Part shown: piece after piece, positions 14,179 through 34,667 of the stretch | Position numbering within the stretch: the first letter of the stretch is position 1 | How the letters are laid out: each line of letters starts with the position of its first letter | Origin: Candidatus Limiplasma merdipullorum | GTDB taxonomy: Bacteria; Bacillota; Clostridia; Christensenellales; Aristaeellaceae | Direction: 5' to 3' | Length of the DNA stretch: 35,238 bases | Assembly: GCA_018711955.1 (NCBI GenBank) | Contig: DVHQ01000243.1 | Span: 1 to 35,238 of the forward strand | The notes under the pieces: generated by a model | What the model was told of the DNA's origin: nothing | Database searches by the model: none | Seen by the model: the letters and a program-made list of their open reading frames with translations, nothing else | Made by a program: the position numbers and the translations under genes

Positions 14179-14535
14179 CTATTGTGCATCGTCCTCGCAG
14201 GTCATATCCAGCGACACGCCCAGCGCCCGCTCCACGCGACGCATGCTCTCCGGCGCCAGCGCGCCCAGACGCCGCCTGAGGCGGGTTTTTTCCAGGGTGC
14301 GCACCTGTTCGCACAGCACGATGGACTCGCGCCACAGCCCGCCCTCTCCCCGCGGGATGTGCACATGCGTGGGCAGCGCCGGCTTGCCGGTACTGCCCGT
14401 TAGCGGCACCGCAATCACCGTGGGCGAATGCAGGTTTCCCATATCGTTTTGAATGATGGCCACTGGACGCGTTCCTCCCTGCTCGCTTCCGACCACGGGG
14501 TCCAGCTCGGCCATGTATATATCGCCTCGTTTCAT
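14179..14535 (-). CDS. mazF: type II toxin-antitoxin system PemK/MazF family endoribonuclease toxin
   Basis: 118 aa. MKRGDIYMAELDPVVGSEQGGTRPVAIIQND ... SPTVIAVPLT ... ESIVLCEQVRTLEK is a typical MazF/EndoA pattern. GGAG RBS. Confidence 0.88.
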   Translation of the reverse strand: MKRGDIYMAELDPVVGSEQGGTRPVAIIQNDMGNLHSPTVIAVPLTGSTGKPALPTHVHIPRGEGGLWRESIVLCEQVRTLEKTRLRRRLGALAPESMRRVERALGVSLDMTCEDDAQ

Positions 14536-14762: not shown

Positions 14763-15932
14763 ATGGCAAAGGTCATTCTGCACGCAGATTTAAATAACTT
14801 CTATGCCTCCGTGGCCTGCCTGCACCGGCCGGACCTGCGGGAGGTACCCGTGGCGGTCTGCGGTGACCCCGCGCGCAGGCACGGCATCGTCCTGGCCAAG
14901 AACATGCCTGCCAAGCGATATGGGATTCAGACGGGGCAGGTGCTGTGGCAGGCGTTTCAGCTATGCCCGCGCCTGACGACCATCGCGCCGGATTACCGGG
15001 AGGTCTCCCGCATGAGCCAGACAGTGCGCACGATTTTTGGGCGTTACACCGACCGGGTGCAGCCCTTCGGCATCGACGAGGCCTGGCTGGATCTGACTGC
15101 GCCCGATATGACGCTGGAGCAGGGCGAGCGCATCGCCAATCATCTGCGCCATACCGTGCGGGAGGAAACCGGCCTGACGGTAAGCGTAGGCGTGAGCGAC
15201 AGCCGTGTATTGGCCAAGCTGGGCAGCGACCTGAAAAAACCGGACGCCGTCAGCCTGATCTGCGAGCAGAACCGATCCCAGGTGCTGGACCCGTTGCCCA
15301 TCGGGTCGCTCCTGTTCGTAGGACGGGCGACGGCGCGCAAGCTCAACGCCATCGGCATCTACACCGTAGGACAACTGGCCGCGGCGGACCCGCAGGTGCT
15401 GCGCGGCGTGCTGGGCAAGGCAGGGCTCACGCTCAGCGGCTTTGCGCGCGGCGCGGACGACGCATCCCTTTTCTTGGATGACCAGCCGGTCAAAAGCGTG
15501 GGCAACTCCACCACCACCCCCAGCGATGTGACGGATGAGCGCGGGGCGCGCCTGACGCTGCTGGACCTGAGTGAGAGCGTGGCCTTCCGGTTGCGCCAGC
15601 AGGGCATGGCCGGACGCGTGGTGGAGCTCAGCCTGCGTGATACGGCCATGCGCACCGTCACCCGCCAGCTTACGCTGGACCGGCCCACCGATTGCAGCTA
15701 TAACATTCTCGACGGCGCCATGGACCTGCTGGACCGGCACTGGCGTCCGCGCGTGCCGCTTCGCGCGCTGGGCGTATGCGTGAGCGCGCTGTACCCCGCG
15801 AACCAGAACATCCAGCTCTCCTTTCTCCCCGAGGAGGCGGCGAATCAACGGCACATGGCCCTGGACCGCATGGTGGACGAAATCCGCGGCCGGTACGGCC
15901 ATGACGCCATCCGCCGCGGGGCGTGGGTATAA
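14763..15932 (+). CDS. Y-family DNA polymerase (DinB/Pol IV - UmuC type)
   Basis: N-terminal ILHADLNNFYASVA (catalytic Asp block; D-x-N-x-FYAS is UmuC-like). FGIDEAWLD (catalytic D-E). Little-finger-length C-terminus. Two LexA boxes upstream. Confidence 0.9.
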   Translation: MAKVILHADLNNFYASVACLHRPDLREVPVAVCGDPARRHGIVLAKNMPAKRYGIQTGQVLWQAFQLCPRLTTIAPDYREVSRMSQTVRTIFGRYTDRVQPFGIDEAWLDLTAPDMTLEQGERIANHLRHTVREETGLTVSVGVSDSRVLAKLGSDLKKPDAVSLICEQNRSQVLDPLPIGSLLFVGRATARKLNAIGIYTVGQLAAADPQVLRGVLGKAGLTLSGFARGADDASLFLDDQPVKSVGNSTTTPSDVTDERGARLTLLDLSESVAFRLRQQGMAGRVVELSLRDTAMRTVTRQLTLDRPTDCSYNILDGAMDLLDRHWRPRVPLRALGVCVSALYPANQNIQLSFLPEEAANQRHMALDRMVDEIRGRYGHDAIRRGAWV

Positions 15933-15971: not shown

Positions 15972-16112
15972 GCGCATCGAAAAAGTCCGCCGTGCCGCCT
16001 CTTCCGACAAAACGGAAAACCCTGGTTCATCGCGCTCGCAGCCAGGGTTTTCCGCACGGATTCGGATTTCATTTGGAGGGACGGTCCCTCCAAACCTCTC
16101 AGAATGGGTTTT
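15972..16112 (-). ncRNA. copy B of an unclassified structured RNA/repeat element (3' of thrS)
   Basis: The minus-strand core 16109..16058 matches 33146..33198 (+) at 45 identical positions in a 54-column hand alignment. It contains the 10-bp hairpin UUUGGAGGGA-CCG-UCCCUCCAAA. A 13-bp stem CGGAAAACCCUGG/CCAGGGUUUUCCG plus UUUUG follows (16054..16008). A second 3' block, GGCGGACUUUUUCGAUGCGC, matches 33292..33312 at 18 of 21 positions. Confidence 0.45.
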
Positions 16113-32366: not shown

Positions 32367-33026
32367 ATGACCAAAGCACAGATTGCCTCCATGATCGACC
32401 ACACGCTGCTCAAGGCCGCCGCCACCCCCCAGCAGATCACCGAGCTGTGTGAAACGGCCAAAGCCCTTCACACCGCCAGCGTATGCGTCAACCCCTGCCA
32501 TGTAGCGCTGGCGGCACAGCTGCTCAAGGGCAGCGGCGTAAATGTATGCACGGTCATCGGCTTCCCTTTGGGAGCCAACACCACCGCCGTCAAGGCCTTT
32601 GAAACCAGGGACGCCATCGCCAATGGCGCGGACGAAGTGGATATGGTCATCAACATCGGCGCGCTGAAAAGCGGCGATCTGGCCCTGTTGGAAAGCGATA
32701 TTCGCGGTGTCGTGGAAGCTGCTGCCGGTACGCTGGTAAAGGTCATTATCGAATGCTGCTACCTGACCGATGAGGAGAAGGTGCTCGCCTGCAAGGCTTG
32801 CGTCAATGCAGGCGCCGACTACGTCAAAACCAGCACCGGCTTTGGTACCGGCGGCGCAACCGTGCCGGACGTCCGCCTGATGAAGGCCTCCATCCCCGAT
32901 ACCATGAAGGTCAAGGCCTCCGGCGGCATGCACAGCTGGCAGGAGGCCGTAGACATGGTGGAGGCCGGCGCGAGCCGTCTGGGGACCAGCTCTACGCTGG
33001 CCATTCTGGAAGGCGCCCCGGCTTAA
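32367..33026 (+). CDS. deoC: deoxyribose-phosphate aldolase
   Basis: [26 protein letters not shown], and the Schiff-base lysine context [10 protein letters not shown]. 219 aa. Starts 6 nt after the regulator stop. Confidence 0.93.
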
Positions 33027-33053
33027 CCTGCGGATTCCAACCGCATGCACACG

Positions 33054-33093
33054 AAAAGCGCCCGGACAGCGCAACAGCGTCCGGGCGCTTTTT
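33054..33093 (+). terminator. intrinsic terminator after deoC
   Basis: AAAAGCGCCCGGAC-11 nt-GTCCGGGCGCTTTT, a perfect 14-bp stem that runs into a T-tract. Confidence 0.8.
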
Positions 33094-33107
33094 AAGCGCC
33101 GCCCCGC

Positions 33108-33136
33108 TTGCAAGCGTGCGCTCCTTTTGTTATAAT
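33108..33136 (+). promoter_or_regulatory. near-consensus sigma-A promoter driving the RNA element / nrdR
   Basis: TTGCAA, 17 nt, TGtTATAAT (extended -10). Confidence 0.7.
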
Positions 33137-33142
33137 AATAAA

Positions 33143-33305
33143 AGGACCCATTTTGAAAGGTTTGGAGGGCCGTAGCCCTCGAAGTGAAAACCGAATTCAG
33201 CGGCCTGTGCGGCGGATTCGGAAGCCCTGCGCGTTTCCCCCGCCGCGCCGTAGTCGCAGGGGAAACGTGTCCCGGCGGAAAAAACCGGCCCGGCCGGACT
33301 TTTTC
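33143..33305 (+). ncRNA. copy A of an unclassified structured RNA (sRNA or nrdR leader with terminator)
   Basis: Lies between the promoter (33108-33136) and the nrdR RBS. Hairpins: 33165-33180 (GAGGGC-CGUA-GCCCUC), 33191-33221 (CCGAAU/AUUCGG), 33232-33267 (CGUUUCCCC/GGGGAAACG). Terminator-like GUCCCGGC...GCCGGAC plus UUUUU at 33269-33304. The 5' core is shared with 16109..16058 (-). Confidence 0.5.
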
Positions 33306-33357
33306 GACACGCTGAGAAGGTGTTGTAGCCCATGGCGGATAAAAAGGAGGACGCTCC

Positions 33358-33849
33358 ATGAGATGCCAGTACTGCGGTTATCTGGACAGCCGCGTGATTG
33401 ATTCCAGGCCCACGGAGGAGGGCAGCTCCATCCGCCGACGCCGCGAATGCCTGCGCTGCGGCAGGCGCTTCACCACCTACGAGAAGATCGAAACCTCGCC
33501 TCTGATGGTGGTAAAAAAGGACATGCGGCGCGAGCCCTTCAATGCCGACAAAATCAAAAAGGGGCTTCTGCACGCATGTCAGAAGCGCCCGGTAAGCATG
33601 AAGGATATCGACGCCATCGTGGAAAAGGTAGAAAAGCAGGTCTATTCCTCCGGCGAGGACGAGCTGTCCTCCCGCCGCATCGGCGAGGCCGTGATGGAGG
33701 AGCTCAAGCGCCTGGACGAGGTGGCCTATGTGCGCTTCGCCTCGGTCTATCGCCAGTTTACCGACGTGAGCAGCTTCATGGATGAGCTCAACAAGCTGGT
33801 GCTGGAAGGCAAGGCCCGCGCCAAGGAAGACAAGCCGTCCGGGGAATAA
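33358..33849 (+). CDS. nrdR: transcriptional repressor NrdR
   Basis: N-terminal zinc ribbon [17 protein letters not shown] ... [17 protein letters not shown], followed by an ATP-cone. AAAAAGGAGG RBS. Confidence 0.95.
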
Positions 33850-33863
33850 CGCGCTTATTCCCC
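33841..33863. terminator. shared hairpin spanning both convergent stop codons
   Basis: GGGGAATAA-CGCGC-TTATTCCCC. The nrdR TAA (33847-33849) pairs with the TTA (the complement of TAA, 33855-33857) of the MBL gene. No U-tracts. Confidence 0.4.
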
Positions 33864-34667
33864 CGCCAGCGTCAGCGTGTCCAGGTCATTGGGCACATGC
33901 AGGTCGCCGTCGTAGTAGGCGCGCCCCTCCTGCGTATAGAGGGTCTGCCGCTGCGCAAGGCGGCGGTCCTCCGTATGCCACAGCACCAGATGAGGAATTC
34001 CCAGCCTCTGCGCCAGCTCGCAGGCATCCTTGACGGTGGAGTGGTGCTTTTCGTAGGGTTTGAAGCGCTCGCGGTCCTCATAGAGGCAAAACGCCTCGCA
34101 CAGCAGCCAGTCCGCGCCCCTGACATAGGCGGCGCAGGCGGGGTTGTAGGGCTCGTCGCCCAGGCAGCACAGCTTGCCGCCCCCTGCAAGCTCCATGGTA
34201 AATCCCATCTGCTTCATCTTGGTGGAGTGAATATCGAAAAACGTAACCTTCCGGCCCAGGATGGTATCCGTCTGGCCGTCGGAAATATCATGGAAAAGGA
34301 TGCGGTCGCCGAGGCGGTCCGTCATCTTTTTTTGCAATGTGATGCGCGCCATCTGGCACAGGCCCTCACGCACGGAGGGATCGCACCAGATGGTCAGCTC
34401 GCCCTCGTAGCGGCCCGCGTTCATGGCCGCCGCCACCATGCGCACCACCCATACCGCACCCAGCAGATGATCGCTGTGCGCGTGGGTGAGAATCAGGTGG
34501 TGGATCTGTGCAAGTTCCACGCCCGCCTTTTCCAGCTGGCTTAGGATGCCGTTGCCGCCGCCCGCGTCACACAGCAGGTAGCCCTGGGGCAAATCCAGCA
34601 GAAAACACGTGTTGTAGCAGCGGGTCACGGCGGCGTTGCCCGTGCCCAGAGCGGTCAGGCGGTCCAT
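33855..34667 (-). CDS. MBL-fold metallo-hydrolase
   Basis: HxHxDH motif LTHAHSDHLLG plus downstream His/Asp ligand positions. 270 aa. GGAGGAG RBS. Confidence 0.85.
   Translation of the reverse strand: MDRLTALGTGNAAVTRCYNTCFLLDLPQGYLLCDAGGGNGILSQLEKAGVELAQIHHLILTHAHSDHLLGAVWVVRMVAAAMNAGRYEGELTIWCDPSVREGLCQMARITLQKKMTDRLGDRILFHDISDGQTDTILGRKVTFFDIHSTKMKQMGFTMELAGGGKLCCLGDEPYNPACAAYVRGADWLLCEAFCLYEDRERFKPYEKHHSTVKDACELAQRLGIPHLVLWHTEDRRLAQRQTLYTQEGRAYYDGDLHVPNDLDTLTLAGE

Follow-up and report, generated by a model that had tools for sequence, protein, structure and literature searches.

A two-copy structured segment in the 5′ leader of nrdR in a human-gut Clostridia species: dedicated RNA control or ordinary genome evolution?

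Introduction

NrdR is the master repressor of ribonucleotide reductase genes. In the stretch of DNA analysed here (the window, 35,238 nucleotides), the region in front of nrdR displays a promoter, a succession of hairpins and a run of U residues, and raises the question of whether the repressor is itself placed under the control of an RNA. An earlier note on this DNA had described a promoter-to-terminator RNA at this position, either an independent sRNA or a leader gating nrdR, and had taken its relatives to be Oscillospiraceae; the latter placement has to be revised, as the closest named relatives, where a genus is given, belong to Candidatus Limiplasma. Cis-acting RNA control of nrdR, if true, would have been the first for this repressor, and a literature search for an nrdR leader RNA returned nothing specific.

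The nrdR promoter and leader

The promoter proposed in the earlier note (33108–33136, plus strand) is present and is characterized by TTGCAA, a 17-nt spacer and a TG-extended TATAAT, with 10 of 12 consensus matches in addition to the TG. It is the sole sigma-70-like site recovered by a promoter scan of 32800–34000, and the same scan disclosed no second promoter upstream of nrdR. Transcription is inferred to start at ∼33143 from the promoter position. The residual leader (33308–33360, plus strand) harbours an ancestral ribosome-binding site, GGAGG at 33346–33350, followed by the nrdR ATG at 33358; both the placement of these signals and the absence of a separate promoter before the gene had been described correctly. 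Judged by the sequences of relatives, which have the same type in front of nrdR, the promoter is ancestral.

Between these two signals lies a segment, copy 1 of the element (33137–33307, plus strand; ends approximate), which corresponds to ∼171 nt of extra leader with respect to the sister lineage L022. As it sits between the ancestral promoter and the ancestral ribosome-binding site, it accounts for approximately the initial 165 nt of the nrdR 5′UTR, which spans ∼215 nt in all: in this species nrdR physically has the element as its 5′ leader, as had been supposed.

Copy 1 begins with a 5′ domain that is shared with a second copy (33144–33198, plus strand) and consists of two small stems, P1 (33144–33148/33159–33163) and P2 (33165–33170/33175–33180), followed by RUGAAAnCCGAAUyC. 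The minimum free energy fold of 33143–33306 contains hairpins at 33165–33180, 33191–33221 and 33229–33270 and then a GC hairpin with U5, so that the three hairpins listed earlier are recovered, the third as 33229–33270. Hairpin 2 (33191–33221, plus strand; CCGAAUUC ... GGAUUCGG) and hairpin 3 (33229–33270, plus strand), a 12-bp GC-rich stem also picked up as inverted repeat I2, are found in copy 1 only. The whole fold marginally beats shuffled sequences (z −1.94; 4 of 200 shuffles equally stable) and its hairpins are independent of one another. Alternative CCGCCG/CGGCGG pairings are possible in copy 1, and are expected by chance at 60% GC.

The statement that the RNA belongs to no known class stands, with no Rfam family reaching threshold. 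The Rfam 15 covariance models gave zero matches at gathering score across the whole window, and a permissive scan of 32950–33450 produced over the element only miRNA and leader noise, at 14–25 bits against thresholds of 43–90 bits; a scan for tRNA and tmRNA was likewise empty. An Rfam negative is not absolute in this lineage, given that a divergent T-box ahead of thrS scores 16.4 bits, below threshold. This thrS leader (window 18400–18100, minus strand) contains a promoter TTGACA...TATAGT, a T-box-like motif AGGGUGGAACCGCG at ∼18196–18183 and a GC-rich terminator at ∼18169–18131 (minus strand). The Rfam T-box model matches it over model positions 156–216 in a local scan only. The leader resembles a divergent T-box of the kind that routine annotation would overlook.

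A weak terminator-like end

Copy 1 closes with a terminator-like structure (33269–33304, plus strand) composed of an A6 tract, a CCGGC-CCG-GCCGG core or alternatively a GUCC(C)GGC/GCCGGAC stem, and U5. The layout of GC stem and U5 described earlier is therefore present, and a terminator pattern scan picks up the hairpin on both strands; its stability, on the other hand, is no better than that of shuffles. The hairpin at 33268–33300 has a diffuse ensemble and a predicted energy of −11.5 kcal/mol (z −0.13), a stability matched by 77 of 200 shuffles. For the deoC terminator, situated 200 nt further upstream, the value is −26.2 kcal/mol (z −6.3). By this measure the terminator of copy 1 is weak and ill-defined, far below the genuine terminators nearby. 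Since nrdR has no other promoter, read-through of 33269–33304 must be substantial.

A second copy behind thrS

The earlier note had observed that the first part of the segment recurs 17 kb away on the other strand. This recurrence is real and is accompanied by a collinear 22-nt piece at the 3′ end. Positions 33146–33196 align with 16109–16060 of the minus strand (52 nt, 84.6% identity, E 3e-9) and positions 33286–33307, ending GGACTTTTTCGA, align with 15997–15977 (22 nt, 91%, E 0.035); no alignment was found between the middle parts. The two copies are thus inverted and 17 kb apart, and the 5′ domain is their best-conserved part. Of its 11 pairs, P2 contains one compensatory C-G/A-U exchange, while P1 displays one-sided changes only; the exchange is weak evidence of an RNA-level constraint on the 5′ module.

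Copy 2 (15977–16112, minus strand, with its 5′ domain at 16112–16053) occupies the intergenic region between the convergent genes thrS and dinB, flanked by the thrS stop codon (16188) and the end of the dinB-type polymerase gene (14763–15932). Placed there, it cannot serve any gene as a leader, so that association with nrdR is not a general property of the element. Internally it comprises a strong hairpin (16054–16013) followed by UUUUG and a weak 3′ hairpin ending GGACUUUUUCGA at 15977. The promoter scan found no promoter ahead of copy 2, and the terminator scan called no canonical terminator at its GGACUUUUUCGA end. Two hairpins of the spacer, 16054–16013 (−25.2 kcal/mol, z ∼−5.5) and 15976–15938 (−28.4 kcal/mol, z ∼−6), look like the real terminators of the thrS–dinB region on the basis of their predicted stability.

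The 5′ domain of copy 2 is bracketed by two exact occurrences of a 10-nt sequence, CGGAAAACCC, in direct orientation (16115–16106 and 16054–16045, minus strand). Either of them can form pairs with one and the same arm of the strong hairpin, GGGUUUUCCG at 16022–16013. The repeats may have arisen as a target-site duplication, or may form a switch between alternative pairings in the thrS 3′UTR; no equivalent direct repeat surrounds copy 1. A metagenomic variant (L052, 10990–11130) diverges right after the strong hairpin downstream of copy 2, lacks dinB at this place and has an altered P2 loop in copy 2 (GACGCATT); its divergence marks a local rearrangement hotspot. The dinB-type polymerase gene is itself adjoined by a MazF/PemK-family toxin gene (14179–14535, minus strand; Pfam E 9e-31).

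The earlier view that the 97-aa reading frame across the nrdR leader is non-coding is borne out by the second copy. The peptides encoded by the two copies share only MK[TS]E and a frameshifting A6/A7 length polymorphism is located inside the copy 1 frame, which together indicate that the element is non-coding. A coding function or leader peptide was rejected for these reasons: neither frame nor peptide is conserved between the copies, and the frame is broken by the polymorphism.

The interval between the copies was also considered as a mobile island and discarded, as it carries housekeeping genes: it encodes a hexapeptide transferase, Wzy, an amino-acid kinase, MatE, phosphoglucomutase, an ABC transporter, a two-component system and deoC. 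An inversion polymorphism between the copies was similarly dismissed, with no recombinant junctions among ∼40 metagenomic sequences.

Distribution among relatives and in sequence collections

The exact NrdR protein is encoded on many human-gut metagenome contigs, which have the same deoC–element–nrdR order and a nearly identical leader. Had the structure been a conserved regulator, it would be expected upstream of nrdR in related species, a point on which the earlier note had itself staked its reading. In relatives whose NrdR is 85–96% identical, the element is absent from this position in both sequence and structure. Their nrdR is preceded directly by TTGCAA/TTGCCA/TTGAAA-17-TGnTATAAT, a promoter type read in L011, L019, L022, L023 and L024, and their leaders measure only ∼30–65 nt. 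With the same promoter type and ribosome-binding site enclosing such short leaders, the window lineage has ∼170 extra nt between them.

The closest relative is L022, which has a 96% identical NrdR, the same downstream genes and a similar upstream terminator. In the leader region it aligns significantly in two places only, the promoter and the 17 nt that directly precede the ATG; the latter match is not equalled by any of 500 shuffles. A clean insertion site could not be drawn from this comparison, as MAFFT placed part of the L022 leader inside the element and 81 of 500 shuffles aligned as well.

At the thrS locus the picture is similar. Copy 2 is absent from relatives with 85–90% identical ThrS (L164–L167), which have plain terminators or other sequence downstream, and neither blastn nor nhmmer detected the element at 80 ThrS loci listed from GTDB genomes (61–75% identity). 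A strict pattern, CCCATTNTGANAGGTTTGGAGG, had no matches in 185,579 species genomes. In a metagenome scan with a 19-base pattern, 30 of the 31 matches represent the same two loci of one species, and the remaining one (L049, from soil) was set aside as a chance match. A covariance model of the 5′ domain scored 90.6 bits for copy 1 and 77.1 bits for copy 2 and disclosed no third copy in the window (filters off) or at 30 loci of relatives. Viral contigs were scanned with three relaxed sub-patterns, and the matches were rejected as chance because they cover the pattern alone; a BLAST search of plasmids and phages in distant mode returned only matches of 26–45 nt, with E values of 0.1 or worse.

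The genes upstream of nrdR differ between lineages and strains. Among the relatives L011–L027 a small PRC-barrel gene (85–93 aa) mostly precedes nrdR, sometimes with one further ORF in between, and in one lineage an ORF without Pfam match takes this position. In the window (32367–33357) the PRC-barrel gene is absent from the nrdR locus and deoC and a two-component system are found upstream instead. In some strains of the same species (L008:1–2800, L043 and L058) deoC and the two-component genes are missing upstream of nrdR, and their place is taken by small ORFs and a gene for a 722-aa large serine recombinase. The breakpoint, at ∼33066–33078, cuts the deoC terminator hairpin in its loop, a short distance 5′ of the nrdR promoter, and may represent an attachment site used by an integrative element. 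In one of the relatives (L017:1800–2000), three TTTCCACA-like repeats, which resemble DnaA boxes, lie within and close to the promoter region of nrdR.

Variation within the species

Metagenomic sequences of the same species, 22 for copy 1 and 11 for copy 2, provide a measure of how strictly the element is maintained. Nucleotide diversity (pi) is 0.022 for copy 1 and 0.024 for copy 2, alongside 0.018–0.030 at third codon positions of deoC, nrdR, thrS and dinB and 0.001–0.002 at codon positions 1 and 2. The nrdR promoter (0.003) and the deoC terminator region (0.004), which adjoin the element, are ∼6-fold more conserved than it is. The element varies at a near-neutral rate, and as promoter and deoC terminator are constrained in the same data, no purifying selection on the element is visible.

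Individual polymorphisms affect the predicted structure in different ways. G33288T disrupts the CCGGC/GCCGG core stem in 6 of the 22 sequences, and at 33262 the majority allele A results in a mismatch in hairpin 3. A C/T polymorphism at 33213 preserves a pair of hairpin 2 as G-U, and the A-tract of the terminator is polymorphic for an A6/A7 indel. The 5′ domain, with a pi of 0.011–0.0125, is about half as diverse as the remaining element, at sites too few for significance. Its low diversity, taken together with the 85% identity between copies and the compensatory pair, hints at either constraint or gene conversion.

Comparison with known systems

The arrangement invites comparison with the premature-terminator (attenuator) 5′ leaders of Firmicutes genes, a general class covered by the survey PMC2965389. 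The order of promoter, structured leader, hairpin with U-run and ribosome-binding site is the same, as is the lack of a second promoter. However, the element has no conserved sensing structure, is confined to one species, varies near-neutrally and ends in a weak terminator; moreover, its 5′ module is found a second time at a place where there is no leader.

Small intergenic repeats such as the Correia elements of Neisseria, REP/BIME and BOX/RUP bring hairpins and terminators into transcription units, and are present in tens to hundreds of near-identical copies with defined ends (TIRs or TSDs). Analogously, the element is a short, structured, non-coding intergenic segment that differs in presence or absence among close relatives and can change the UTR of the gene next to it. 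It deviates from these families in that the searches recovered only two copies, which have diverged and display neither a TIR nor a consistent TSD.

Regulatory RNAs can also be derived from leaders or 3′UTRs: Listeria SreA and SreB are riboswitch- or leader-derived sRNAs, and enterobacterial 3′UTR sRNAs originate from the ends of messages. Here too a terminated leader or a 3′UTR fragment could act in trans, and the two RNAs would have a common 5′ module. In contrast to those cases, the discrete RNA and its targets are putative here, and the element is not conserved.

Weighing the explanations

The arrangement of copy 1 could be that of an sRNA gene, one of a trans-acting pair with a common 5′ seed domain, of which the RNA from the nrdR promoter would terminate at ∼33305 and the other would be processed from the thrS 3′UTR. 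A strong promoter that puts the start at the conserved domain, an RNA end with hairpin and U5, the best conservation between copies in the 5′ domain with its one compensatory pair, and a within-species diversity there of about half that of the remainder all fit such a pair. It is nonetheless unlikely: copy 2 has neither its own promoter nor a canonical terminator, the terminator of copy 1 is only as stable as shuffles, the copy 1 promoter is the ancestral promoter of nrdR and not that of an sRNA, and the element is unconserved beyond one species with overall variation near neutrality. Distinctly improbable is a newborn regulatory RNA, by which the ∼160-nt nrdR leader RNA and a thrS 3′UTR RNA, united by a 5′ module of two small hairpins with SD-like GGAGGG and CCCUC, would either work in trans or titrate out a factor bound by both; this, if true, would link the control of dNTP supply to that of translation. 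The least supported rival, highly improbable on the present evidence, is a regulated attenuator or riboswitch that senses a ligand, a protein or translation and thereby gates nrdR. The succession of promoter, structured leader, hairpin with U5 and ribosome-binding site, with no second promoter, is what such a device would look like, and the ORF that runs through the terminator, with GUG as its start codon in copy 1 and AUG in copy 2, could in principle couple translation to read-through. Yet this start lies 14 nt from an SD that is itself inside a stem, and the peptide differs between copies; the leader is unconserved in relatives, the same 5′ domain also occurs behind thrS, where it leads no gene, the element varies near-neutrally, alleles that break its stems are appreciably frequent, and the weak terminator has no evident competing antiterminator.

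A rather different origin is suggested by the presence of the element in the window and its absence from the sister lineage at both loci, by the inverted orientation of the two copies and by the CGGAAAACCC repeat flanking the 5′ domain of copy 2: a non-autonomous, MITE-like family of mobile repeats, with more diverged copies elsewhere, of which copy 1 would have inserted at the nrdR transcription start. This is quite unlikely in view of the lack of terminal inverted repeats (the inverted-repeat search displayed internal hairpins only) and of a direct repeat flanking copy 1. The metagenome scan recovered two loci only, 85% identical in one part and unalignable in their middles, the viral, phage and plasmid collections yielded no finds, and a transposase is absent from the window.

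Taken as a whole, the earlier reading is upheld in its description and not in its interpretation. Promoter, hairpins, U-run, the lack of a second promoter, the lack of a known class and the repeated 5′ part were all confirmed; a dedicated RNA control of nrdR, or a promoter-to-terminator sRNA, is not supported in view of the missing conservation in relatives, the non-leader position of copy 2, the near-neutral variation and the weak terminator. The explanation favoured here, to which we assign about an even chance, is that of a young, lineage-specific, duplicated structured segment which has become part of the nrdR 5′UTR and there has at most the effect of a leaky attenuator that is not regulated. 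In a single Clostridia species of the human gut, a relative of Candidatus Limiplasma, this DNA segment of ∼135–170 nt appears in two diverged, inverted copies, copy 1 within the nrdR 5′UTR and copy 2 within the 3′ region of thrS. The segment would have no sensor, and nrdR would be expressed by RNA polymerase passing the weak GC-hairpin/U5 site at 33269–33304. At most, this site would stop a fraction of transcripts constitutively, leaving a ∼160-nt RNA as a by-product. The two copies probably arose by duplication; candidate routes are a duplication from one site to the other, gene conversion between them and a rare mobilisation event.

Concluding remarks

The evidence points to ordinary genome evolution, with a lineage-specific structured segment that landed in a 5′UTR. 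The locus provides a cautionary example: in GC-rich DNA, a layout of promoter, hairpins and U-run is insufficient to call a riboswitch. At the same time, it may be a minor example of how leaders gain raw material for attenuation.
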